Origin: Candidatus Kaiserbacteria bacterium
GTDB taxonomy: Bacteria > Patescibacteriota > Minisyncoccia > Phycocordibacterales > SBAW01
Direction of reading: 5' to 3'
NCBI GenBank assembly: GCA_009691465.1
Contig: SICK01000002.1
Location: forward strand, 9,951 to 73,950
DNA length: 64,000 bases
Positions within the stretch are counted from its first letter, which is position 1. Every line of letters begins with the position of its first letter. Under the pieces are notes generated by a model that saw only the letters and a list, made by a program, of their open reading frames with translations, was not told the origin of the DNA and made no database searches. The position numbers were made by a program, and so were the translations under genes. Below are positions 12,006-34,830 of this stretch, in pieces.

Positions 12006-13928
12006 CTACTGTTTCGGCGCGACAATGTCCATACCCGCGACAAAGTCCGGCTCGGTAAGCCGCGTGGTGGGTGCGAGCGCTGTGGCCGACACGGCCGTCT
12101 GGGCAAAGCGGTCCGTACCCGAGAGCACCGCCGCGCCGGTCAATGCGGGCACCGTGCCCACTTGTGAGACGCTTGGGCTCAAGATGACCTGGAAGCTGCC
12201 CGTCTGCGCGGCCGAGCTGTAGCCCACCCCCGGCTTGATGTCCCCCACATTCCAGCGCACGGTGCGGCTGGCGGCCTCGTAGGTGATGTCAGACCCGGGC
12301 GCGGGCGCCACAAAGCTTACGTACGAAGGCAGTACCGCCGAGACGGTGGCGTTGCCGATAGTGTTGGACGAATTTTTAATCGTCCATACGACCGCGTAGG
12401 CCGTGGGAGACTCTGCGCGCGGCGGCAGGACCCCCGCGTTGGTAAAGGGCCCCGTGTTGTGGAGCGCCTGTGCGGTGAGCAAAGCGGCTGACGAGATAAC
12501 CAGCTGTGTATGTGCGCCCGAGGTGACCGCCTCGGGGACGCTCCCCTCGCCGGTGCGGGTGCCTTTGACCGCGAGCGTCAGGTCAATGGTCGGGTTTTGA
12601 TACACCACGCCGCCGGCCCCGGGAGCAAGGGTCGAGAACGAGAACGAGAGCGTCCCGCTGCCGCCCGGCGGCACTTGTGCAAGCGATGGATCCTGGGCGC
12701 TGGTCCACACCAGGCTCTGCGTGCTCGAGTCATAAAAGCCGCCGCTCGACTTGATAGAGGCAAGGTCGACCATGGGGCCCTCAAATTTGAGCCGCAGTTC
12801 TACATTGCTTACCGGGTCGCGCAGGTTGTTTTGCCAAAGGATATTGCCCTGCAACAATGTGCCCGCCGAGGCGGAGAGTTTTTCTCCCGACTTGCCGTCG
12901 ATAGCAATCGAGCCGGTGATAAACGGCCGGTGCACGGTAAGGCTCGCGGGCACCGAGAGGAAGGGTACGTCTATCTTGCCGGCGGTCTGGTCCTTGGTCG
13001 AGCCGGTAATAAACCGGAAGACCTTCTCATCGCCGTCCTGGCCGTCGACCCGACCCGTAACCCGCAGGACCTGGGTGACGCCCGGACTCATGGTCCCCAC
13101 CCGCCAGAGCGTCCCGCCGGAGTCGGCGTGCGGGGTGGTGCTGTCGACAGAAAAGCCGAACGGATACTGCCCCTGCACCACCACGTCTTGGACGGGTGAT
13201 TGCGAGTTGCTTTGCACGGTCACCGTCATCGAAAACGGCTGTCCGGCGATTATCTCGGCCGGTGCGTCCACCGACACCGACACCGGGGAGGAGCCGAGCG
13301 TCACCGCCACCGCACTCTCTTTGGTAAAGACGGCGTTGCTTGCCTCGACGCTGTACTCGAGCGATGCTTTTATAGTCTGGACCGAGCCCTCCGCGCCGTA
13401 AAAGACGGCCGAGCTGGTCAACTTTTGTTGTCGGCCGGAATCGAGCGTTCCGATAGAAACCCGCTCTTGGTTGAGCGCCTTCTGCGGGTTTTTAGGGTCG
13501 CGCGTGCCTTGCGGGTAGGTGATGATAAGGTCGGCCAGCTGCAGCTGCGCGGGGTTGTGGTTGGTAATGATGAACTGCAGCTGGGCCGCGGTGCCGCCGT
13601 CGATGAGCGCGGGCGCCACAATCTGCAGGTCGATGTTGTCGGAAGAAATGTAGTTGCCGCCGGTAAAAAAGAATACGGAGGCACCAATAGTCGCGAGTAC
13701 AAAAAAAACCGCCGACCCGATGAAGAACTTGGTCGCCAGCGCCATGCGCTCTTGCGGGGCCGAAAAGGCCGGCCGGACCGTGGTCGGCAGCGGCGTGTCC
13801 TCCCAGCGGGCCGGCGCATGCGCATCGGAGGGGTCGAGCGGCGCGCGTATATCGTGCGGCATATGCTCCTGCCCGCGCGAGTAGAGCTTATTTTTAAGCT
13901 CCTCCACCCCACTCTTATCCTCTTGCAT
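12006..13928 (-). CDS. large membrane-anchored surface protein with repeated beta-sandwich (DUF11/CARDB-like) domains
   Basis: Single N-terminal TM after an approximately 70-aa cytoplasmic segment; about 550-aa Thr/Ser/Val-rich extracellular repeats. Confidence 0.55.
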   Translation of the reverse strand: MQEDKSGVEELKNKLYSRGQEHMPHDIRAPLDPSDAHAPARWEDTPLPTTVRPAFSAPQERMALATKFFIGSAVFFVLATIGASVFFFTGGNYISSDNIDLQIVAPALIDGGTAAQLQFIITNHNPAQLQLADLIITYPQGTRDPKNPQKALNQERVSIGTLDSGRQQKLTSSAVFYGAEGSVQTIKASLEYSVEASNAVFTKESAVAVTLGSSPVSVSVDAPAEIIAGQPFSMTVTVQSNSQSPVQDVVVQGQYPFGFSVDSTTPHADSGGTLWRVGTMSPGVTQVLRVTGRVDGQDGDEKVFRFITGSTKDQTAGKIDVPFLSVPASLTVHRPFITGSIAIDGKSGEKLSASAGTLLQGNILWQNNLRDPVSNVELRLKFEGPMVDLASIKSSGGFYDSSTQSLVWTSAQDPSLAQVPPGGSGTLSFSFSTLAPGAGGVVYQNPTIDLTLAVKGTRTGEGSVPEAVTSGAHTQLVISSAALLTAQALHNTGPFTNAGVLPPRAESPTAYAVVWTIKNSSNTIGNATVSAVLPSYVSFVAPAPGSDITYEAASRTVRWNVGDIKPGVGYSSAAQTGSFQVILSPSVSQVGTVPALTGAAVLSGTDRFAQTAVSATALAPTTRLTEPDFVAGMDIVAPKQ

Positions 13929-13943
13929 CCCTATAGTATACCT

Positions 13944-14519
13944 CTACAGCCCCGTGGCTTGGAGGGACTCGTTGATGAGCTTTATGAGCAGTTTGCGGGA
14001 TGCGGCCGCTTCGGCGGCCAGCTCGGGGGTAAAGGCGTCTGTTTCGACAAAAGGGGCGAGCGTCGGGAGAGAAGGCAAGTAGCCCAAGTGGGCCAAAATG
14101 CGCAGTACCAGCACGCACTCGACACTGTCGGCGTTGTGCTCGGTGTGAGCCAGCGACTCAAACCCTTTACGAACGGTTTGGTAGAGTTCCGGCGTGTGTT
14201 CGGCCCCGAGCACCAAACGCAACAACAGGCGCGAGACTTGGCCGAGCCTTTTGCATTGAGCGGGGGTCGCACTGCAGTAGTCGCGCGACACTTCGTCGGC
14301 GCCCGTGAGCCGCCACTCGTTTTTGCCGCGCACAAACGTGTAGCGCCCGCGCGACAGCGTCTCGAGCCCGTAGCGCAACTTCGACGACTCGCGCCGCGCG
14401 CTGGTTGCTTTGGCGCGTACGAGCCCCAACTGCTCGGTCAGCACAAACACAAGCGTGTTGGCCTCGCCCACCCCGCGCTTGCCCAACACTATCCCTTCGG
14501 TGATATATTTTTCGTGCAT
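13944..14519 (-). CDS. recO: DNA repair protein RecO (short form)
   Basis: N-terminal OB-fold pattern (EGIVLGKRGVGEANTLVFVLTEQLGLVRAKATSARRESSKLR); no zinc-finger. Confidence 0.55.
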   Translation of the reverse strand: MHEKYITEGIVLGKRGVGEANTLVFVLTEQLGLVRAKATSARRESSKLRYGLETLSRGRYTFVRGKNEWRLTGADEVSRDYCSATPAQCKRLGQVSRLLLRLVLGAEHTPELYQTVRKGFESLAHTEHNADSVECVLVLRILAHLGYLPSLPTLAPFVETDAFTPELAAEAAASRKLLIKLINESLQATGL

Positions 14520-14541: not shown

Positions 14542-17500
14542 CTAGAGTCTCTCGAACGACACCGCCTCTTCTTCTTTGGTCTCCAGTGATATAAGACCGG
14601 TCGCCCCCATCAGCGCGTCGCGGTGCGCGCGGATAAATTCTGCATCCGGAGTTTTTATCAGCAGGCCCGGTCGGTCGGTCATCGAAAGTTTTGAGGTCTT
14701 GCGCCACTCTTGTATCGCACGCACCCACTCACGCAAAGTCCCCTCTTCTTTAAGTTCCGCAGTTAGTTCGATATCGAGCACTACCTCTTCTTGGAGGATC
14801 TGATCCTCCACAACTTCTTTGACGTTTACTTCGTCGGCGATGATTGTGCGGAGGCCCGCGTCTTTGGGAGCGCTCTTGGCGATGAGCTTTTGGAGCGGCT
14901 GGCGGATTTTGATGCCCGCCTTCTCGCGCGCCTGCAACCCCAACGAGCAGATAGAGCGTACCCGCGCCATATCGAGCGTAAGTGCGGCATCGACCGGCGC
15001 TGGTGCAGGCCAGACAGAAAGGTGCACGCTGATGGGGTCGCTTGCAGAGCGCATGCGACCATACAGATCCTCTGCAAAGAACGGCATCACCGGCGCCATC
15101 ACCTGTGCGAGCACTCTAAGCGCGTAGCGCAGGGTGGCAAGTGCGGCGTCTTTGTCGGGACCGTCGGTTTTAAACCGGTCGCGCGAGCGGCGGACGTACC
15201 AGGTTGAGAGGTCGTCTATAAAGTCCGCAAGCGGTCGCACCGCGAGGTCGAGCTCGTAGGTCTCGAAGCCTTTGGTTGAAGCCTCGACCGTTTCGGCCAG
15301 CCGAGACAGTATCCAACGATCAAGCACATGAGTAGGTGCAGGTTGTTCAGAAAAATAGTCTGGCCTGCCGGCCTCATGGGTCTTGGCCGAGACAGGAGAC
15401 CCGAGGACTTTTTTCTGGGCAACCTGCACCGGAGCAAACAGGTCATAAAAACTGCGCACGTTGTCGAGACGCATAATCAGTTTTTTGCTCACCTCATCCA
15501 CCCCTTTTTCCTGAAAGCGCAGGTCCTCGGCTTTGACCAAGGGCGACGACAGCAGATAGTACCGCAGCGCATCAGCGCCGTACTTTTCTACTACATCCAT
15601 CGGGTCGGGATAATTTTTAAGGCTCTTGCTCATCTTCTTTCCGTCCGCGGCGACGATAAGCCCGTTGACTATGACGTTTTTATACGGCGCGCGCCCAAAG
15701 AGCGCGGTGCCCAACACCATAAGCGAGTAGAACCACCCGCGCGTCTGGTCGAGCCCCTCGGCAATAAAGTCCGCCGGATAGCCTTTTTTGTTAAAGCCCA
15801 AAAACCCTTTCGGGTCGAAAGCGCCTTCTCTAAACGGGTAGTGATTGCTGGCAAACGGCATCGAGCCGGACTCAAACCAACAGTCAAAGACGTCGGGTAC
15901 CCGCACCCACTCGCCGTCGAGCGAGTTCCCCATCGCTACGTCGTCGATGTAGGGCCGGTGCAAGTCGAGTTCGTAGTCGCGGTTGTGCGGGTAGGGCGTA
16001 AACGGCACCTCGCACATGCCCGCGGTGCGCAGATAGCGGTCGTCGTTGTCGACACGGGACATAGTCTGCGCAATGCTGGCGCGCTTGGCGATATGTATCA
16101 GCTGATACGCCGGTCCTTGATGCGTCACGATGAGAACATTTTTTCCCGTGTATCGCTGCTCGATATCAAAGAGGAACTCCCCTATCCGGCGGCGCAGCAC
16201 TCGGTAGGTCTCGCCGCCTTCGGGACCCTTGTCCATGCGCTCGACAAACGAAGCATAAAAATCGCGATAGGCCTGTATCGGCCCGCCGTCAAAGCGGCCG
16301 AAGTCTACCTCGACCAGCCGCTCGTCGACCATGACCGCGCTTTCGGGCACGCCGAGCTCGCGAGCTACTATCGCGGCCGTCTCGCGCGTGCGCAGCAAGG
16401 GCGAGGTGATGATAAGGTCGATGGATTTCGATTTTAATTCGGCAGCGGTTGCGGCGGCCTGCAGACGCCCCGTTTCGGTGAGCGGGTTATGCGGGTCCCC
16501 TTTGTGGTCGGTGAGGTCTTTTGTGTTGTATATCGCCTGGCCGTGCCGCATCACAAAGTAGCGGTTGCCCGAACGGCGCACCATAGCAAGCAGGTCCAAC
16601 ACCGAGCCCGCCACCTTGAGCTCTTTGGTCTTTTGGTTGCGCCACACCGGCAAGGGCGCGCCCCAGTAGCGGCTGCGCGATATCGCCCAGTCGGGTGCGG
16701 ACTCCAAACCGTTGTTGAAGCGCCCCTTCCCCACATGCTCGGGGACCCAGCGTACCCGCGCGTTCTCACGCAGGAGTTTTGATTTAATATCAGAGACTTT
16801 TACAAACCATGAGTTGGCCGCCCAATTAAGCAGCGGCGTGTCACACCGCCAACAGTGCGGGTAGCTGTGCTTTATCTTTTCTTGCTTAAACAGCAGACCT
16901 TTTTCCTGCAGCCATGCGGCAATTTTTTCGTCGGTCTCGCGCGGGTTGCCTTTGGGTTTGACGGGCAGGCCCGCAAAATCTTTGACCTCCGGAGCGAACT
17001 TGCCCTCTTGGGTGACGTGCCGGATGAGCGAGATCTTGTGCTTTTGAGCAAGCGCGAGGTCGTCGGCGCCGAACGCGGGCGCGATGTGGACGATGCCGGT
17101 ACCGTCCTCGGCCGTCACAAACTCCGCCGCCCACACCTTGCGCTCGCCCGGGTAGTAGTCGAACGGGGCCTGATACTTCTTGCCCACGAGCTCGGTGCCT
17201 TTGTACCGCTGCACCACCTCGCCCTCTACCTTGCCCTCTGCGGCAATGACAAAGCCGCCGTCCGTCTTGACCTTCGTATATACAAAAGTGGGATTGACCG
17301 CGGCAGCGTTGTTGCCCGGCAATGACCATGCGGTCGTGGTCCAGATCAAAAGCGACGTGTCGGGCTCGTCGACCAAGCGCAACTTGACCGTGACCCCGAC
17401 GTCGTCGATGTCGAGGTAGCCCTGCGCAACCTCAAAGTTGCTGAGCGTCGTGCCGCAACGCGGGCAGTAGTGCATCGACTTAAAGCCCTCGTAGATCAGC

Positions 17501-18045
17501 TTTTTGTCGTACAGCGTCTTAAACGCCCACCACACCGACTCGGTGTAGGTCGGGTCCATGGTCTTGTAGTCCTGGTCCATGTCGGCCCAGCGGCCCAAGC
17601 GCGGGATGATGCGCTTCCAGTCCGAGACATCCTTCATGATAGAGACGCGCGCCGCGGCGTTGAACTTCTCTATCCCGTACTCCTCGATGTCCTTCTTGCC
17701 CTTGAGCCCGAGCTCCTTTTCTACCAGGTTCTCCACCGGCAAGCCGTGGCAGTCCCAGCCCCAGCGGCGTTGCACCCGATAGCCCTGCATCGTGCGGTAG
17801 CGCGGGATAGCATCCTTTATTGTTGAGGCGAGGATGTGGCCGTAGTGCGGCAGGCCGTTGGCGAACGGCGGGCCGTCGTAGAAGACGTACTCGCCCTTGG
17901 GCGCGTCTTTGGTGAGCGTTTGTTCAAAAATCTTCTCCTTATTCCAAAACTCCAAAACCTCTTCCTCGCGCGCAGCCAGAGGGCCCTTGGGCTTTTCGGC
18001 GTGGTGGTGGAGCTCCTCCCCGCCCTGTTTCCTATCGTCGACCAT
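14542..18045 (-). CDS. ileS: isoleucyl-tRNA synthetase with inserted histidine-phosphatase (PGAM-like) domain
   Basis: HYGH and KMSKS motifs, type-2 IleRS features (LHRPYIDDV); about 195-aa insertion (RHGQ...SPLLRTRETA...IVTHQGP) between RYWG-PLPVW and HRPYID segments. Confidence 0.9.
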   Translation of the reverse strand: MVDDRKQGGEELHHHAEKPKGPLAAREEEVLEFWNKEKIFEQTLTKDAPKGEYVFYDGPPFANGLPHYGHILASTIKDAIPRYRTMQGYRVQRRWGWDCHGLPVENLVEKELGLKGKKDIEEYGIEKFNAAARVSIMKDVSDWKRIIPRLGRWADMDQDYKTMDPTYTESVWWAFKTLYDKKLIYEGFKSMHYCPRCGTTLSNFEVAQGYLDIDDVGVTVKLRLVDEPDTSLLIWTTTAWSLPGNNAAAVNPTFVYTKVKTDGGFVIAAEGKVEGEVVQRYKGTELVGKKYQAPFDYYPGERKVWAAEFVTAEDGTGIVHIAPAFGADDLALAQKHKISLIRHVTQEGKFAPEVKDFAGLPVKPKGNPRETDEKIAAWLQEKGLLFKQEKIKHSYPHCWRCDTPLLNWAANSWFVKVSDIKSKLLRENARVRWVPEHVGKGRFNNGLESAPDWAISRSRYWGAPLPVWRNQKTKELKVAGSVLDLLAMVRRSGNRYFVMRHGQAIYNTKDLTDHKGDPHNPLTETGRLQAAATAAELKSKSIDLIITSPLLRTRETAAIVARELGVPESAVMVDERLVEVDFGRFDGGPIQAYRDFYASFVERMDKGPEGGETYRVLRRRIGEFLFDIEQRYTGKNVLIVTHQGPAYQLIHIAKRASIAQTMSRVDNDDRYLRTAGMCEVPFTPYPHNRDYELDLHRPYIDDVAMGNSLDGEWVRVPDVFDCWFESGSMPFASNHYPFREGAFDPKGFLGFNKKGYPADFIAEGLDQTRGWFYSLMVLGTALFGRAPYKNVIVNGLIVAADGKKMSKSLKNYPDPMDVVEKYGADALRYYLLSSPLVKAEDLRFQEKGVDEVSKKLIMRLDNVRSFYDLFAPVQVAQKKVLGSPVSAKTHEAGRPDYFSEQPAPTHVLDRWILSRLAETVEASTKGFETYELDLAVRPLADFIDDLSTWYVRRSRDRFKTDGPDKDAALATLRYALRVLAQVMAPVMPFFAEDLYGRMRSASDPISVHLSVWPAPAPVDAALTLDMARVRSICSLGLQAREKAGIKIRQPLQKLIAKSAPKDAGLRTIIADEVNVKEVVEDQILQEEVVLDIELTAELKEEGTLREWVRAIQEWRKTSKLSMTDRPGLLIKTPDAEFIRAHRDALMGATGLISLETKEEEAVSFERL

Positions 18046-18057
18046 ATAAAGAGCTTA

Positions 18058-19662
18058 CTACATCTCCTCCGGGGTCGGGATACCAAGGAGAGTGAGGCCT
18101 TCGGCGAGTGTGCGCTCGGCGGCGGCGGCGAGGAAGACGCCGTAGTGCTGATGCGGGCCGCCCAGCACCTTTTCTTGCGCATACCAGGAGTTGAAGGCCG
18201 CCGCGAGCTCGGTCAAATAAGTGGTCAGGTAGTGCGGCTCGAGTTCTACGGCGGCATACTCAACCGTCTCTGCATAGTGCACGAGCACGCGTTCCAGCAC
18301 GCTCGCGTGCTCGGGTGCGTCGGATTGACTGGGCGCAATGCCTTTGTCGCTGGCCGCGCGCAAGAGCGAGCGGGCACGCACCAGCGCGTATTGTACATAG
18401 GGCCCCGAGTCGCCCTCGAGCGACAGTGATTGTTCGGGATCGAAGAGGATATCTCTACCGCTCCCCGACTTGAGCACACTGTACTTGATCGCGCCGACTG
18501 CAATCTCTTGGGCAGTTTTTTCTTTATCAGCAAGTACGCGGTCCGCCATCTTTTCTTGCGCGTCTTTTTGCAAGTCTTCAAGTAGCGACTCGCCGGTGAT
18601 CACGTTGCCCAAGCGCGACGACATCTTGCCGGTCGTAAGTCTGAGAAATCCGTTAGCAACGTGGCGTAAGGTCTTGCCCGCCACTTTGTCGGGGAATATT
18701 TTCCCTATAGCGTCGAACACCACCCCAAAAAAATCCTTCTGCTCGCCGCCGGTGACGGTGAGCGATACATCAAAGTCCGGGTACGCCTTGCTCTTGAGGT
18801 CGAAGAGGCCGACCTCTTTTGCCTCATAGGTCGGGAGCCCACGCGAGTTAAGGAACACTCGCGTGTGCGCTCCTTTGTATACGACCGCGCCCTCGCTCTC
18901 TTCAAATACTTTTCCGATGTGGGCACGTACAATATCCGTGCCAAGAGGGCCGGATTCGCTCTCAAAAAATTCTGTATCAAATTTCGTACCCAGTCGCGCG
19001 CACAGCTCATCCAAATGTCGGCGCGACGTCGCTATCCCCTGCTCGCGCAAGTCGCTCCACTCGGCATTCGAGTGTTCGTAGAGCGCGGTGTTTATTGCAT
19101 CTATCTGCTCCTTACCGGACCCGTCTTCATATGCTGCGTTGCCTACCTTGTACGCTTCGCCGAGCGCTTTAATATCGTTTGGATCTCCCTTGGTTTGCGT
19201 GAGCCCCCACACGCCCTTGGCGACCGTGAGTCCTATGTCTGACGGGTAGTTGACCCGTTTTACATCAGCGCCGGTTTTCTGGAGCAACCTTGCAATTGAT
19301 TCGCCCAAAATATTGCCTATCAGGTTGCCAATATGGAGCGGCTTAAAAAGGTTGGGGCTCGTGTACTCGACCAGCACCGTCTTGCCTGCATACGGCTGCG
19401 CGATTACCTGCTCGCCCGGCAGCAGTGCCTCACGCGAGAGATAAAAGTTGATGAACTTCCCCGCGACCTCGATCTTCTCCACTCCCTCTACTTTGAGCTT
19501 AGCCGCAAACTCTTGGGGATCGAGCTTGTTGACCAGAGCGACATTACTCGAGTAGTCACCGTGGCTCATATCGCGCGGTCGCTCAACCGCGAATCGCGGT
19601 TGCCCTTCGGGGCCTTGGCGAAGTAGGGCCTCTCGGATAGCATCGTAAATCCTCTCCTTCAT
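18058..19662 (-). CDS. argS: arginyl-tRNA synthetase
   Basis: HIGN class I motif (KPLHIGNLIGNILG), C-terminal DALR-type anticodon-binding domain; start trimmed to MKERIYD just after upstream gene stop. Confidence 0.9.
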   Translation of the reverse strand: MKERIYDAIREALLRQGPEGQPRFAVERPRDMSHGDYSSNVALVNKLDPQEFAAKLKVEGVEKIEVAGKFINFYLSREALLPGEQVIAQPYAGKTVLVEYTSPNLFKPLHIGNLIGNILGESIARLLQKTGADVKRVNYPSDIGLTVAKGVWGLTQTKGDPNDIKALGEAYKVGNAAYEDGSGKEQIDAINTALYEHSNAEWSDLREQGIATSRRHLDELCARLGTKFDTEFFESESGPLGTDIVRAHIGKVFEESEGAVVYKGAHTRVFLNSRGLPTYEAKEVGLFDLKSKAYPDFDVSLTVTGGEQKDFFGVVFDAIGKIFPDKVAGKTLRHVANGFLRLTTGKMSSRLGNVITGESLLEDLQKDAQEKMADRVLADKEKTAQEIAVGAIKYSVLKSGSGRDILFDPEQSLSLEGDSGPYVQYALVRARSLLRAASDKGIAPSQSDAPEHASVLERVLVHYAETVEYAAVELEPHYLTTYLTELAAAFNSWYAQEKVLGGPHQHYGVFLAAAAERTLAEGLTLLGIPTPEEM

Positions 19663-19679
19663 ATCGTGCAGACTATCAT

Positions 19680-20786
19680 CTACAGCGTCCGTTGGGAAAG
19701 CGCCGGGGTCGAAGAGGCGCTGGTGACGGTAAATCCGATCCGGCCTATCAAAGCGCCGCTTGCGGTCTCCACATCGCAGCGCCACTCGCCGGGCACGAGC
19801 GCGCTTTTGATGCTAAAGCCCCGGTAGCCGTCCTCTCGCCCGCCTTGGATGGGGAACGAGACTCGGGAGCGCTGCTCCCACTCGCCGCCGGCGTTTTTGT
19901 ACTCCCACACATGGTAGATCGGCGTTGCAAGGTCGGCGGGGGCAAACACCGCCGAAAAGCACGCCGCCGTGCCGCTGCCCGAGGTGTACTGCACACCGGT
20001 CTCACGCCAAAACTGGTACCACGGTGCGCGTTCATAGAGCGCAAGGTAGGTGCTGTCGGAGCGGCGCAATACCGAGTGGTAGATCCCAATATCTTTGAGC
20101 GAGAGCGGCACCGGCGGTATGACATTGAGAAAATAGAGGAGATTAAAGATGCAGAATATCGCGCAGACAATGAGCGAGACTTCTTTGAGTTTTTTTGTGT
20201 CGGTACCACGAAACACCGCAAAGAACAGCAGCGACAAAAACCCTGCGATGGCAACCAAGCTCAAGATGCCGCTTAAGAGGAACGCAAGTGTGCCTATCGA
20301 GTGAGTGATAAAGATCGGCACCGCCACCAGCGCGTAAGAAAGCATCAAAAAGTAGTACGCTCCGACGTTGAAGCGCAACAGCGCGTAGCGGCTCCTAAAG
20401 TACTCGTTGCCGAAGACCATCAGGACAAGGATGCCAATAAAGACCGCACTGCCCGCCAAGGTCCCCGAGTGGCCGTAGAGCACCAAAAGGTTGCTGGCGA
20501 GACCACCGAAACAAAACTGCAGCATCAGGAGCATAAAGAGCGGCTCGGCATCATCCGGCCGGCCTGTCCCGAGCTTTGTCGAGGGGCGCCTACTCCGCAA
20601 GTTGAGCAAAATAATAAACGCGCCACCGATAAACAAATACGAAAGCAACAGGATGTTGTTGAAGATGCTGTCCGGCCGCTTGGCCACCCACAGGTCAAAC
20701 AAAAAGCCCACCGCCAAAGCCCCCACCCCGATATGGTGCTCATACTTCTCCCAAAACTTGAATATTGTGTGCCACAGGGCGTGCAT
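19680..20786 (-). CDS. polytopic membrane protein with C-terminal soluble domain, unknown function
   Basis: About 8 predicted TM helices then approximately 120-aa hydrophilic C-terminal domain. Confidence 0.5.
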   Translation of the reverse strand: MHALWHTIFKFWEKYEHHIGVGALAVGFLFDLWVAKRPDSIFNNILLLSYLFIGGAFIILLNLRSRRPSTKLGTGRPDDAEPLFMLLMLQFCFGGLASNLLVLYGHSGTLAGSAVFIGILVLMVFGNEYFRSRYALLRFNVGAYYFLMLSYALVAVPIFITHSIGTLAFLLSGILSLVAIAGFLSLLFFAVFRGTDTKKLKEVSLIVCAIFCIFNLLYFLNVIPPVPLSLKDIGIYHSVLRRSDSTYLALYERAPWYQFWRETGVQYTSGSGTAACFSAVFAPADLATPIYHVWEYKNAGGEWEQRSRVSFPIQGGREDGYRGFSIKSALVPGEWRCDVETASGALIGRIGFTVTSASSTPALSQRTL

Positions 20787-20790
20787 AGCG

Positions 20791-22095
20791 CTATACGAAC
20801 GAGTCGGGGATGGGGAATTTTTGAGCGAGCTCTTTTATTTCTTGGCGAATGGTATCGAGTTTGGATTGGTCATCTTTATTTTTCATCGCGTCGAGCATGA
20901 GCTCCGCCACCCGGGTACACTCCCCTTCTTTAAACCCGCGAGTGGTAATGGCCGGGGTGCCAAAGCGGATGCCCGATGGGTTAAACGGCGGCCGCGTATC
21001 ATCGGCGATAGCATTTTTGTTGAGCGTGATACCGACCGCGTTGAGCGTCTCCTCGGCGGCCTTGCCCTCGATACCCAAGCTCCCGAACACGTCGGCAAGA
21101 ATAAGATGGTTGCTCGTACCACCGGCGAGCATGCGTACGCCGCCTGCACGAAAGACTGTTTCCATCGCTTTGGCGTTCTTGAGTATCTGTGCGGCATAGG
21201 TTTTAAACGCCGGCTGCAGCGCCTCGCCAAACGCCACCGCTTTGGCGGCTATCTGATGCATGTGCGGCCCACCCTGAAAGCCCGGGAACACGGCACGGTC
21301 AATGAGCGTCGGCAGGTTTTCTATAGTTTTCTCCGGCGCTTTCATGGGGTTGGACACTACCCCTTTGGTCATGATGAGCCCGCCGCGCGGGCCCCGCAGC
21401 GTCTTGTGGGTCGTCGTGGTAACGATTTGGAACCCGTAGTCGAAGGGGTTCTTAGCAACCCCGCCGGCAATAAGCCCGGCGATATGCGCTACGTCGGCCA
21501 TGGCCACTGCACCCACCTCGTCGGCAATCGATTTTATCTGTGCCCAATCAAGCTCGCGCGGATAGGCAGAGAAGCCACCGAGGATCATTTTGGGCTTCTC
21601 GCGCACCGCGGTGGCGCGCATCTCGTCGTAGTCGATCTCGCCGGTTTCGACGTTTTTCATTTTGTAGCGCACAAAGTTGTAGAGCTTCGACATGTAGGTC
21701 ACGGGGTGCCCGTGGGTCAGATGCCCGCCGTGCCCAAGGTCCATGCCCATGATCGTGTCGCCCGGCTCCATCCACGCAAAGTACGCGGCGATGTTGGCGT
21801 TGGCCCCGCCGAGCGGTTGTACATTGGCGTGGTCGCACCCGAAGAGTTTTTTTGCCCGCTCGATCGCGAGCGTCTCTACCTCGTCAGTAAACTCTTGCCC
21901 GCCGTAGTAGCGCTTGCCCGGGTAGCCCTCGGAATATTTGTTGGTAAACACCGAGCCGTTTGCCTCGCGCACCGCGCGGCTGACATAATTTTCGGACGGA
22001 ATCAGCTCCAACCCCTCGGCCTCGCGCTGCTCCTCGCCCTGTAATGCTCCAAACACTTCTTTGTCCTGGCTTTCAATAGATTCGTAGAGATTCAT
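20791..22095 (-). CDS. glyA: serine hydroxymethyltransferase
   Basis: PLP-lysine region and full SHMT fold, 434 aa. Confidence 0.95.
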   Translation of the reverse strand: MNLYESIESQDKEVFGALQGEEQREAEGLELIPSENYVSRAVREANGSVFTNKYSEGYPGKRYYGGQEFTDEVETLAIERAKKLFGCDHANVQPLGGANANIAAYFAWMEPGDTIMGMDLGHGGHLTHGHPVTYMSKLYNFVRYKMKNVETGEIDYDEMRATAVREKPKMILGGFSAYPRELDWAQIKSIADEVGAVAMADVAHIAGLIAGGVAKNPFDYGFQIVTTTTHKTLRGPRGGLIMTKGVVSNPMKAPEKTIENLPTLIDRAVFPGFQGGPHMHQIAAKAVAFGEALQPAFKTYAAQILKNAKAMETVFRAGGVRMLAGGTSNHLILADVFGSLGIEGKAAEETLNAVGITLNKNAIADDTRPPFNPSGIRFGTPAITTRGFKEGECTRVAELMLDAMKNKDDQSKLDTIRQEIKELAQKFPIPDSFV

Positions 22096-22117: not shown

Positions 22118-23065
22118 TTATCCGTGGAGTTTTTTGTTGTAGCCGCCGGCCACCGTGAGTTCGGCCTTGATGCCTGCGTGCGGCTCGTAGCCCTCGAGCA
22201 GTACCATTTCGGGCTTAAAGTCCTCAAGCGAGTTGACGGTGCCATTGATACGCAGCGTGGGGAAAGGTTTTGGTTCGCGCGCAAGCTGCTCTTTGACCTG
22301 CTCGCGATGATTTTCGTACATATGAAAGTCGCCGAACGTATGGATGAACTCCCCCGGCTCTCTGCCGAGCACTTTGGCGATGATGACGGTCAGGAGCGCG
22401 TAGCTCGCGATGTTAAACGGCACACCGAGGAATATGTCCGCCGAGCGCTGGTAGAGCTGGAGACAAACTTTGCCGTGCTTGATGTTGACCTGGTACATAT
22501 TGTGACAGATAGGAAAGCGCGCCCCCTGCCCCGGTTTGGCCATCTTGTACATGTACTGCGGGTCCCATGAGGTCACCAGCGTGTTGTGGGCGTCGGGGTC
22601 CTTGTGCAACTCGTCTACCACCCAGCCGAGCTGGTCCACGGTCCGCCCGTCTTGCGCAGGCCATCTTCGCCACATCTCACCGTAGATATGCGGTAGCTCA
22701 CCGTTTACTTTTGCGAAGTCGGCGTCGTTTTTTATCTTCTCAATAAACTGCTCTTTAGTGAGTTCTCCCTGGTGCTTTTCGTTGTAGATCTTATACGGAT
22801 AGTCGTCCCAGATGTGCACGTTGTTGTCCACCAGATATTTTATATTGCTCTGTCCCGAAAGAAACCAGTACAACTCCTGCAAAACGCCGTTCCAATATAC
22901 TTTTTTGGTCGTCAGCAACGGAAAGCCCTGCGACAGATCAAAACGTATCTGTGCCCCAAACACGCTATAGGTTTTGACCCCCGTCCCGGAGTCCACCTGC
23001 TCCTCCCCCGCTTCAAGCGTCTGGCGCAAGAGGTCTAGGTACTGGGTCTCGGGGTGCTTGTCCAT
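22118..23065 (-). CDS. thyA: thymidylate synthase (ThyA type)
   Basis: Conserved ThyA motifs (LQLYQRSADIFLGVPFNIASYALL); start trimmed to MDKHPETQYL after dcd stop. Confidence 0.9.
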   Translation of the reverse strand: MDKHPETQYLDLLRQTLEAGEEQVDSGTGVKTYSVFGAQIRFDLSQGFPLLTTKKVYWNGVLQELYWFLSGQSNIKYLVDNNVHIWDDYPYKIYNEKHQGELTKEQFIEKIKNDADFAKVNGELPHIYGEMWRRWPAQDGRTVDQLGWVVDELHKDPDAHNTLVTSWDPQYMYKMAKPGQGARFPICHNMYQVNIKHGKVCLQLYQRSADIFLGVPFNIASYALLTVIIAKVLGREPGEFIHTFGDFHMYENHREQVKEQLAREPKPFPTLRINGTVNSLEDFKPEMVLLEGYEPHAGIKAELTVAGGYNKKLHG

Positions 23066-23069
23066 AGTA

Positions 23070-23633
23070 TTACTTCTTAGATTTTTTGGCCGCCTTTTTT
23101 TCAGGTACGTAGTGCTTCCAATTGTCTTTTGCAAACCGGCCGACATCTTTATAGTTTTGGCGCGGAGGCGATGACAGCCCGGAGAAGGTCAGCTGGGCTA
23201 TTTTCATCCCGGGCCGGAGCACTATGGGAATATTATTCTGATTGGTTATCTCGAGCGTGATGTTGAGAAAGTGACCCGGGTTCACGATTCCGGCCGTGTT
23301 GTGGATCATAAGCCCCACGCGCGCCAAAGAGGACTTGCCGGAGAGTTGTATAAGATAGTGGTCCGAGCCGAAAAAGTCTTTGGACGTGCCCAACACCGAG
23401 ATGCCGGGACGCAGGATGAACTCCTGGCCGTCTTTGAGCTTAAGCTCGGTAGTCTTGGCAAATATCTTTTTTTGCGGGTCTATCACCACCGCGGTATACG
23501 CGTCGTTGAGCAAAAAAATGTTGCCGAGCAGGATGTCGTAGCTCGCCGGCCCCAGCCGCGACTCGTCGAACGGCCTCATGACAATGTTGCCGTTTTTAAC
23601 CTCCTTCAAAATATCGGTGTCTGAAAGAAACAT
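23070..23633 (-). CDS. dcd: dCTP deaminase (possibly bifunctional dCTP deaminase/dUTPase)
   Basis: dUTPase-fold Dcd family pattern; start trimmed to MFLSDTDILKE after CYTH gene stop. Confidence 0.85.
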   Translation of the reverse strand: MFLSDTDILKEVKNGNIVMRPFDESRLGPASYDILLGNIFLLNDAYTAVVIDPQKKIFAKTTELKLKDGQEFILRPGISVLGTSKDFFGSDHYLIQLSGKSSLARVGLMIHNTAGIVNPGHFLNITLEITNQNNIPIVLRPGMKIAQLTFSGLSSPPRQNYKDVGRFAKDNWKHYVPEKKAAKKSKK

Positions 23634-23634
23634 A

Positions 23635-24309
23635 TTATTGTATGGTAAATATTTTATCCGTCCCGTAATACTCGGGCCAATGCGCATTGTAATGCGCAAA
23701 CATCCGCTCGAGCCGCTCCTGCTGCAACTCTTCGACCCCGCACTCCTGCATAAGCGCCGCGATACGCTCCCGGGCGGCCGCAACCTCTTCCTCCGTGCCG
23801 ACCACCATTTCGAACTCTGCAAGCCAGCCGTAGCCGGCGTTGCGGTCGAGGCAGACGGTCGTATCTTTAAACGCGTACTCCTCGCGCTCGCGCGACCACT
23901 TGGCCTGGTAGCGAAACCCGGCGCTGATGAGGATCTGGTCGAGTTGCTCGAGGGTCAAGTCTACCCGCTCTTCAAACTCCATGCGCGCCACCCCGTTGGC
24001 GCTACTGTCGGTCCCCACCGATGCTTTGACCACCAACAACACCTCGCCGTCCTTGTTGCGTGTGCGGACCGACGACTGTGTCGCACGCAGCGCAAGGTCG
24101 ACAAGTACTTCGTGCAACTTCGGCGACAGATGGCCTTCTATTTTTTTAACCAACGCCTCAAGCGTACCTCCGGTAAAATAGTGATTGAGCTGTTTGTTTT
24201 TTGAGGTGCACTTCGAGCGAGGGTCGAGCGTGCGTATTTTATTGCGCAGTATTTCTGCTTGTTCGGAACTTCCCAAAAGCGATTTAACCTCTACCTCGTA
24301 CTGCTGCAT
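23635..24309 (-). CDS. CYTH-domain protein (triphosphate tunnel metalloenzyme)
   Basis: N-terminal EVEVK (ExExK) CYTH signature; 224 aa; first gene of CYTH-dcd-thyA-glyA block. Confidence 0.7.
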   Translation of the reverse strand: MQQYEVEVKSLLGSSEQAEILRNKIRTLDPRSKCTSKNKQLNHYFTGGTLEALVKKIEGHLSPKLHEVLVDLALRATQSSVRTRNKDGEVLLVVKASVGTDSSANGVARMEFEERVDLTLEQLDQILISAGFRYQAKWSREREEYAFKDTTVCLDRNAGYGWLAEFEMVVGTEEEVAAARERIAALMQECGVEELQQERLERMFAHYNAHWPEYYGTDKIFTIQ

Positions 24310-34683: not shown

Positions 34684-34684
34684 G

Positions 34685-34757
34685 TGGGCGCTGCAGGACT
34701 CGAACCTGCGACCATCCCGGTGTAAACGGGGTGCTCTACCAACTGAGCTAAGCGCCC
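34685..34757 (-). tRNA. tRNA-Val (anticodon TAC)
   Basis: Hand-parsed cloverleaf; anticodon loop TTTACAC. Confidence 0.85.
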
Positions 34758-34758
34758 G

Positions 34759-34830
34759 TGCCCTCGGTAGGAATCGAACCTACATTCGCGGCTTAGAAGT
34801 CCGCTGTTCTATCCATTGAACTACAAGGGC
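34759..34830 (-). tRNA. tRNA-Arg (anticodon TCT)
   Basis: Hand-parsed cloverleaf; anticodon loop CTTCTAA; 1 nt from tRNA-Val. Confidence 0.8.

Follow-up and report, generated by a model that had tools for sequence, protein, structure and literature searches.

The 64,000-nt stretch of DNA analysed here (the window; Candidatus Kaiserbacteria bacterium, contig SICK01000002.1, positions 9,951 to 73,950) codes for a type-2 isoleucyl-tRNA synthetase (IleRS) with a second enzyme domain nested inside it. The zinc-knuckle loop of the synthetase is replaced by a whole histidine phosphatase domain of superfamily branch 1. The gene is designated ileS::His_Phos. In our view, its product is a bifunctional enzyme, consisting of an IleRS and an internalised phosphatase, and the linkage of the phosphatase to tRNA charging has been selected. 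We give this reading a probability of about 0.6. An initial annotation, made from the letters alone, had already reported an IleRS with a complete in-frame histidine phosphatase domain, and this core claim holds.

The host protein is a complete type-2 IleRS. Its HYGH and KMSKS motifs, the editing and anticodon-binding domains and the DUF5915 tail are all intact. The open reading frame (ORF) codes for 1167 amino acids (aa) without a stop codon or frameshift and is the sole IleRS within the window. The whole protein scores 842.3 bits against the NCBIfam model for ileS (TIGR00392, cut-off 621.4). It is identical to NCBI EXS62_00770, a "hypothetical protein" of Candidatus Kaiserbacteria bacterium. 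The N-terminal part holds the first Rossmann half, the CP1 editing domain and CP2, up to WAISRSRYWGAPLPVW and the helix GSVLDLL (the names CP core, CP1, CP2 and CP3 are those of PMC11685878). The editing-domain motifs WTTTAWSLPGN and GTGIVHIAP are readable. Towards the C-terminus, Pfam assigns Anticodon_1 (aa 909-1054, E 7.5e-30) and DUF5915 (aa 1088-1155, E 5.7e-11). Across 80 sequences, H67, G69, K804, M805, S806 and K807 are invariant, and H70 is nearly so. The closest folds to the full-length model, as found by Foldseek, are type-2 and eukaryotic IleRS. Two special types of IleRS were considered and rejected, the GNAT-bearing one (NF040702, ileS_w_GNAT; 333 bits vs a cut-off of 1999, so that the protein is a non-member) and the resistant MupA/MupB enzymes (MupB 664 bits and MupA 642 bits vs 1900).

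The full-length AlphaFold2 (AF2) model has per-residue confidence values (pLDDT) below 50 at conserved IleRS motifs (aa 97-103, aa 453-464 with WAISRSRYWG, and aa 718-728 with DCWFESGS), probably because the underlying alignment is shallow and of low diversity. ORFs on the + strand overlap ileS, e.g. one of 369 aa at 15328-16437 (+). These are shadow ORFs of a gene with 60% GC, and those across ileS show no sign of being genes.

In the whole protein, the Pfam match to tRNA-synt_1 is split in two by His_Phos_1 (aa 497-659, E 9.6e-34). The insert was delimited against P0213, which alone among the best 120 homologues is devoid of it and has 74% identity overall. The span from WAISRSRYWG to DCWFESG comprises 275 aa in the window protein vs 82 aa in P0213. 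The insert therefore covers approximately aa 488-692, and 193 residues are extra. The initial annotation had estimated about 195 residues and had placed them at 15976-16563, within 6-21 nt of the limits in Table 1. It had also located the insertion at the short zinc connector of type-2 IleRS, in agreement with the insert-free proteins. P0213 reads WAISRSRYWGAPLPVWRCKKCKAVEVVGSIEELRIKTGALPRDKRGEVDLHRPYIDSLSWLCACGGMAQRVPDVFDCWFESG over the 82-aa span, with a CxxC...CxC knuckle, and the four-Cys knuckle is likewise intact in the insert-free IleRS of two further loci (L002 and L004). In 119/119 insert-bearing proteins, the four Cys positions are taken by other residues (N, T, N/D, L/M and others). 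IleRS as a family is not defined by the zinc knuckle. Going by ValRS/IleRS structures, we take the loop of the knuckle to be the CP3 region, with provisional residue ranges. At the C-terminal junction, P686 never varies, and H687 and N688 hardly do; RSGN at the other junction is nearly invariant, too. The GC content is continuous across both junctions. The insert has a pLDDT of 89-96 over aa 490-660 in the full-length model.

The insert is a complete branch-1 histidine phosphatase domain. As judged from its motifs and its modelled structure, it has the full set of catalytic residues and is predicted to be active. The signatures RHG, SPLLRTRET and VTHQGP, which had been singled out initially, were verified by translation and are conserved in the homologues. 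In what had been described as an Arg-rich loop, R552 is conserved and R554 is variable. In the alignment of insert-bearing proteins, R500, H501 and R552 are found without exception (119/119), and H642 is present in 118/119. E612 is kept in 76 of the 77 proteins with a full-length cap (long forms), the window protein included. When modelled on its own with AF2, the domain adopts a histidine-phosphatase fold (pLDDT 86.5, predicted TM score (pTM) 0.86). Foldseek matches it with a TM of 0.73-0.78 and a probability of 1.00 to 4ij6, 1fzt, 1h2e and 2a6p, and with a TM of 0.73-0.74 to 4ij6, 1h2e and 1ebb. A sequence search against solved structures agrees, as the nearest relatives are small-substrate phosphatases.

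Several specific functions were tried for the domain and rejected. The scores were far below cut-off for phosphoglycerate mutase (dPGM; NF038349, 81-85 bits vs 225; TIGR01258, 19.5 vs 81.7; NF010713, 19.3 vs 305), for the phosphoserine phosphatase PspA (55-60 bits vs an equivalog cut-off of 350), for the alpha-ribazole phosphatase CobC (TIGR03162, 81-86 bits vs 162.9) and for SixA (38.5 bits vs an equivalog cut-off of 74.5). Because all equivalog models stay far below their cut-offs, the domain is a member of the superfamily without being a phosphoglycerate mutase, and it cannot be given any known specificity. The earlier term "PGAM-like" is thus appropriate at the level of the superfamily only; the nearest enzymes are PspA, PhoE, CobC, GpgP and TIGAR. 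Net charge and isoelectric point (pI), compared between inserts and free-standing domains as a possible sign of nucleic-acid binding, are unremarkable (inserts: mean net charge -0.3, pI ~7.4).

The architecture is clade-wide and recurrent, not a one-off. PF00300 is present in 119 of the best 120 database matches (the identical entry counted). The match is far beyond chance, and it recurs in 118 homologues with 59-71% identity, whose genomes were in many cases assembled independently. Scanning GTDB for species genomes with the motif [LI]D[LP]HRP[YF]ID of the junction, a survey of relatives as had been suggested initially, revealed at least 138 species-level genomes with the insert junction (Kaiser-, Adler-, Zambryski-, Nomura-, Taylor- and Wolfebacteria, Paceibacterota). 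Eighty GTDB loci were kept for inspection of gene order, and all of them are colinear (80/80), with the N-terminal part of ileS followed by the insert and then by the C-terminal part. At NCBI, insert-bearing proteins are labelled "class I tRNA ligase family protein" or "hypothetical". A split IleRS gene was also considered. A search with the insert and its flanks returned proteins of at most 480 aa, several of them on long contigs, which look as if the gene were split. This idea was rejected because the short proteins are frameshifted calls in error-prone assemblies, in which thyA is split, too.

The insert was probably acquired by internalisation of a neighbouring phosphatase gene into ileS. 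In the window, ileS is flanked by argS and recO. The same holds for many related insert-bearing loci, with argS upstream of ileS in 52/80 and recO downstream in 65/80. Four free-standing homologues have 35-37% identity to the insert (P0025, P0034, P0023 and P0031), and each is encoded just downstream of argS (4/4 places). In 3 of these 4 places, an insert-free ileS that retains the Cys knuckle lies downstream of the free-standing gene. P0025 (Staskawiczbacteria, L002 and L003) starts 5 nt past argS, and an insert-free ileS (958 aa) and recO are found further downstream. The gene order for P0034 (L004) is argS, a small ORF, His_Phos and ileS (961 aa, starting 10 nt past His_Phos), then a small ORF and recO. 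P0023 (L007 and L008) has a 4-nt overlap with the argS stop codon, and the next gene is ileS. P0031 (L094) starts 10 nt past argS. Conversely, all insert-bearing loci inspected (80/80) are devoid of a second His_Phos within ±5 kb, and the 64-kb window has none elsewhere, either. From this complementary pattern of free and inserted copies, the insert is probably an internalised operon neighbour. P0349 is an ArgRS with a C-terminal His_Phos domain, which is the simple read-through version of the same argS-His_Phos association.

The phosphatase occurs in several further architectures. When the insert alone was scored against 1.84 billion cluster representatives, 17,081 matches were obtained at E <= 1e-3. 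Among the top 150 matches to the insert, 140 representatives were new, and 88 of these 140 have IleRS flanks. The insertion sites, called A, A', B and C, were mapped by motif and pairwise alignment. Site A is that of the window protein, just before HRPYID, and site A' is after this motif. Site B lies between DxWFxSG and strand beta-4, and site C between the SC fold and the anticodon domain. Site A holds single domains and, in P0247, P0279, P0298 and P0303, tandem pairs. Sites A and C are both occupied in P0317, P0331 and P0339, sites B and C without A in P0314, and sites A' and B in P0350. In the window protein, sites B and C are low-confidence variable loops (aa 729-756 and 871-905; pLDDT <50 over aa 882-899). 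Outside IleRS, P0218 is a partial ValRS (NF004349, 411 bits) followed by four tandem His_Phos domains. Its three complete copies keep the R-H-R-E-H residues (with Asn to Ala in copy 3), and the fourth is truncated. TsaC::His_Phos fusions are found in four clusters. Across the tandem, multi-site, ValRS, ArgRS and TsaC forms, the R-H-N-R-E-H set is kept in almost every complete copy, the exceptions being the first domain of P0350 (Gln for Glu) and two copies with the Asn replaced. The neighbour-joining (NJ) tree of the His_Phos domains has a star-like shape with little resolution, and gene fragments may be among its "free" representatives, so that it is of qualitative use and does not yield a count of insertion events.

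Two IleRS proteins contain additional foreign domains. P0305, a partial IleRS, has three of them in frame (aa 316-492, 676-867 and 921-1065): an IS200/RAYT-like Y1 transposase inside CP1 (Y1_Tnp, 7e-12; REP_Tyr_transpos, 81 bits vs a cut-off of 80), followed by His_Phos at site A and, at site B, a GNAT acetyltransferase. P0347 combines His_Phos at site A with a P-loop kinase-like insert of ~185 aa at site B (aa 726-910; AAA_18, 28.9 bits vs a cut-off of 29.4; weak PDB matches to APS kinase, shikimate kinase and Pnkp1). By these matches, the pairing of a kinase with a phosphatase inside one aminoacyl-tRNA synthetase (aaRS) is weakly supported, if intriguing.

Bifunctionality of ileS::His_Phos, as we propose it, would have arisen when the phosphatase gene next to ileS was internalised, after which the Cys ligands of the knuckle would have decayed. 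In the proposed reaction, R500, R552 and H642 would hold the terminal phosphoryl group of the substrate, and H501 would attack it to form a phospho-histidine intermediate. E612 would protonate the leaving group, and water would then release inorganic phosphate (Pi). The IleRS part would meanwhile go on charging tRNA-Ile. The physical linkage of the phosphatase to tRNA-charging enzymes would be selected and not accidental, because catalytically intact copies occupy no fewer than four positions in IleRS, form tandems, and are also attached to ValRS, ArgRS and TsaC.

For the substrate, pyrophosphate (PPi), or AMP or another nucleoside monophosphate (NMP), may be considered, a by-product of reactions that convert ATP to AMP and PPi. 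This is a guess, which we would expect to fail somewhat more readily than to hold. It is made because hosts and neighbours share the conversion of ATP (or another NTP) to NMP and PPi. This applies to IleRS, ValRS, ArgRS and TsaC as hosts, to cca and tgt, and to Ham1, TilS and HD_3. The latter three are neighbours of P0042, a more distant representative (Ham1 ITPase, translationally coupled with a 4-nt overlap, TilS and the HD_3 nucleotidase). In one locus (L092, 1964-3292), a TsaC::His_Phos fusion is encoded beside cca, tgt, a queuosine-salvage gene and truD. No Ppa-like ORF was found in the 64-kb window with an approximate E. coli Ppa query. The roles put forward initially, namely action on aminoacyl-adenylate or nucleotide by-products or a part in regulation, are speculative. 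The aminoacyl-adenylate is an unlikely substrate for histidine-phosphatase chemistry because it has no terminal phosphomonoester. In its widest form, the proposal would be that class-I aaRSs of Paceibacteria have a built-in, cis-acting phosphohydrolase, which was recruited independently at several positions in IleRS and onto ValRS, ArgRS and TsaC, serves the charging reaction, and clears products such as PPi and AMP where they arise or heals phosphorylated tRNA 3' ends. We regard this generalisation as doubtful.

Several observations weigh against selected coupling of the two activities. In short forms (42/119, 35%), ~30 residues of the cap (roughly aa 580-611) and the proton donor Glu are deleted, while the R-H-R-H pocket is still invariant. 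In an NJ tree of the IleRS core (without support values), the short forms do not group together but are dispersed, which suggests repeated, apparently independent deletion of the cap. PPi hydrolysis is, to our knowledge, not an established activity of superfamily branch 1, and a search of the literature for it revealed nothing relevant for this branch. The insert evolves faster than the IleRS core (50% vs 70% mean identity). In the NJ tree without support values, the insert-free P0213 falls within the insert-bearing sequences, beside short forms. In the P0213 loci, there is no His_Phos gene within 6 kb, and the small ORF between argS and ileS holds no His_Phos remnant. The domain is therefore dispensable for IleRS, and either it is gained and lost easily or ileS is exchanged between lineages by recombination. 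Finally, gene fusion in the candidate phyla radiation (CPR) is promiscuous. The TsaC proteins (Sua5/YrdC) of Patescibacteria (P0358-P0474) have C-terminal partners that include Ogt, TruB, a 2',5'-ligase/CPDase (LigT)-like domain, 3-methyladenine glycosylase (AAG), GNAT, Nudix and His_Phos, with the Ogt methyltransferase domain being the commonest. IleRS itself also hosts GNAT, RAYT-like and P-loop kinase-like domains. Fusion alone is thus weak evidence of coupling.

The faster evolution of the insert, its absence from a close relative and the mixed company of fused domains (at least seven unrelated small enzymes for TsaC, and three other types in IleRS loops) would also fit an autonomous domain that merely travels with its host. 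The phosphatase would then be a housekeeping enzyme of the PhoE/PspA/CobC type, fused into a large, essential and constitutively expressed neighbour in a streamlined genome. Its chemistry would be unrelated to aminoacylation, and coupling would exist only via expression and stoichiometry. Also in favour are the nearest solved relatives, which all act on small metabolites, and the insertion points, which are low-pLDDT loops of variable length in the window protein. However, in-frame internal insertion is much rarer than read-through fusion, and such an autonomous enzyme would not easily account for a single family that occupies at least four IleRS positions, forms tandems and occurs on ValRS, ArgRS and TsaC, or for the close free-standing form directly downstream of argS in 4/4 places. 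The near-invariance of RSGN and of the residues P686-H-N at the junctions suggests a fixed docking geometry. An autonomous phosphatase deserves serious attention, and we judge it to be rather unlikely.

A role in tRNA end-healing is a further alternative. The phosphatase would remove a 2'- or 3'-phosphate, or a pyrophosphate, from a damaged or toxin-modified tRNA 3' end before charging. All fusion hosts and many neighbours are indeed tRNA enzymes (IleRS, ValRS, ArgRS, TsaC, cca, tgt, truD and TilS). The recurrent loss of the cap with retention of the phosphate pocket would open the site to a macromolecule; SixA, for comparison, is cap-less. The phosphatase and the P-loop kinase-like insert of P0347 recall kinase-phosphatase RNA repair enzymes, albeit on weak matches. 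Against this, the window protein is of the long, capped form that is typical of small-substrate enzymes, the net charge and pI of the inserts are ordinary, and TsaC does not handle tRNA 3' ends. We consider end-healing to be improbable.

It is more improbable still that the domain is a pseudo-enzyme, substituting for the zinc knuckle as an element of CP3 folding and stability or as a docking platform. The zinc ligands are gone in all insert-bearing proteins, 35% of the homologues are devoid of the cap and the proton donor, and the junction residues are highly conserved, all of which would fit such a role. A structural role would, however, not maintain a nucleophile and a phosphate pocket, and R500, H501, R552 and H642 are invariant or nearly so, short forms included (42/42), with the full catalytic set in almost every complete extra copy.

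An artefact or a selfish element (assembly chimera, intein, intron or mobile insertion), which the initial annotation had partly rejected and partly named as a check, is ruled out despite the superficial likeness of the junction PHN to an intein-terminal His-Asn: the arrangement is colinear in at least 80 independent genome assemblies and 118 protein clusters, there is no break in composition across the junctions, the frame is continuous, the insert starts with MVRRSGN and has a His_Phos fold, Hint, intein and endonuclease domains are not detected by Pfam, and HN is followed by a variable residue (R, A, K, E or T), never by a conserved Cys, Ser or Thr.

Table 1. Features of the ileS::His_Phos gene and of adjacent genes (positions are those of the window; the amino acid numbering is that of the 1167-aa protein)
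Feature	Position	Strand	Remark
ileS::His_Phos	14542..18045	(-)	single ORF, 1167 aa; type-2 IleRS with nested phosphatase
IleRS N-terminal part, aa 1-487	16585..18045	(-)	Pfam tRNA-synt_1 covers aa 30-487
HIGH motif, as HYGH, aa 67-70	17836-17847	(-)	checked by translation
Inserted segment, aa 488-692	15970..16584	(-)	delimited against insert-free P0213; 193 net extra residues
Pfam His_Phos_1 (PF00300) match, aa 497-659	16069..16557	(-)	excised segment: E 2.9e-35, 122.1 bits vs cut-off 21.7
RHG: R500, H501, G502	16540..16548	(-)	H501 is the predicted phospho-acceptor nucleophile; checked by translation
R552	16390..16392	(-)	second phosphate-binding Arg, in SPLLRTRET; checked by translation
Cap segment, aa 577-613	16207..16317	(-)	ends in GGET; ~30 aa of the segment missing in short forms
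E612	16210-16212	(-)	predicted proton donor, in GGET; checked by translation
H642	16120..16122	(-)	second catalytic His, in VTHQGP; checked by translation
C-terminal junction and degenerate zinc knuckle, aa 680-728	15862..16008	(-)	VPFTPYPHNRDYELDLHRPYIDDVAMGNSLDGEWVRVPDVFDCWFESGS; from translation
IleRS C-terminal part	14545..15861	(-)	second Rossmann half with KMSKS, SC fold, anticodon-binding domain, DUF5915 domain
KMSKS motif, aa 804-808	15622-15636	(-)	checked by translation
argS (ArgRS)	18058..19785	(-)	Pfam; 12 nt upstream of ileS
recO	13944..14519	(-)	Pfam RecO_N and RecO_C; downstream of ileS
CYTH	23638-24309	(-)	
thyA	22121-23146	(-)	
glyA	20794-22095	(-)	
DUF2914	19683-20786	(-)	

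Some features of the wider neighbourhood may be added. Upstream of argS, the window codes for a CYTH protein (triphosphate tunnel metalloenzyme), thyA, glyA (SHMT) and a DUF2914 protein. A similar nucleotide/one-carbon cluster is found in L001 and L089. The GTG start codon of argS as listed leads to an overlap of ~100 nt with the upstream ORF, and the Pfam N-terminal domain begins only at aa 43. Translation probably begins instead with the Met at ~aa 42 (MKERIYDAIREALL; region 19662-19785 (-) of the window). In L007 and L008, a Y1_Tnp gene is located two genes upstream of argS. In the P0213 loci (L090, 7723-11086; L091, 7393-9734), an RVT_1 gene adjoins a gene for a CLIPPER/DUF11-like surface protein, accompanied by bAvd in L091, and this looks like a diversity-generating retroelement. 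At the equivalent place, the window has a gene for a 640-aa DUF11 protein (12006-13928). There are eight tRNA genes in the window. Two of them, tRNA-Val(TAC) (34684-34757) and tRNA-Arg(TCT) (34758-34830), both on the (-) strand, adjoin each other with zero spacer.

The aaRSs are among the best-studied enzymes, and a complete, apparently active and unrelated enzyme nested within the catalytic domain of one of them is unusual. If kinetic coupling is true, the ultra-small CPR cells would make up for housekeeping functions that they lack by building these into essential enzymes. If the cis-acting phosphohydrolase is real, it would be a new kind of aaRS accessory activity. Should the two activities be uncoupled, the protein would still be a natural example of domain insertion from an operon neighbour and of a zinc knuckle replaced by a protein domain. 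It would also provide a map of permissive IleRS loops, useful in protein engineering, and a lineage marker for Paceibacteria.

In comparison with known synthetases, the best full-length fold matches are the IleRS2 of Priestia megaterium (8c8v, Foldseek E 5e-66) and the IleRS of Thermus thermophilus (1ile, 2.6e-51). Features in common with type-2 IleRS are HYGH, KMSKS, the editing domain CP1, the domain for anticodon binding and a C-terminus of the DUF5915 type. The window protein differs by the ~193 extra residues between WxISRxRxWGxPxP and HRPYID and by the loss of CxxC...CxC.

The insert, in turn, has the fold of small-substrate phosphatases such as PspA (4ij5/4ij6), PhoE/YhfR (1ebb, 1h2e), CobC (6nru, 6e4b), GpgP (Rv2419c, 4pz9; also 6s2q), the riboflavin-pathway HFP (9mmh) and TIGAR (3e9c). 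The TM is 0.66-0.78 at a root-mean-square deviation of ~2.4-3 Å, and the RHG...R...E...H residues, the size and the cap topology are common to both. In contrast to these enzymes, to which its identity is 23-28%, the insert is embedded in another enzyme.

A search of the accessible literature for the fusion itself, for CPR aaRS insertions and for GNAT-IleRS brought up no description, consistent with the remark in the initial annotation that no such IleRS was known to it, and an NCBIfam scan turned up no curated model for a His_Phos form of IleRS. The His_Phos-bearing IleRS thus appears to be undescribed. NF040702 (ileS_w_GNAT) is a curated precedent for an IleRS with an unrelated enzyme domain, which is an acetyltransferase there and a phosphatase here; P0305 carries both. 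His_Phos domains joined to a nucleic-acid or nucleotide enzyme occur in Rv2228c (RNase H/acid phosphatase, NF005567), in MutT1 (Nudix plus His_Phos, NF052459) and in PFK-2/FBPase-2. The first of these models is the best phosphatase-type NCBIfam match of the insert (99.5 bits vs a cut-off of 326). All three are end-to-end fusions, whereas the insert is nested inside the catalytic domain of its host. Appended or inserted domains on aaRSs are already known; what is unusual here is that a complete and conserved enzyme resides in the catalytic domain and has been recruited repeatedly.

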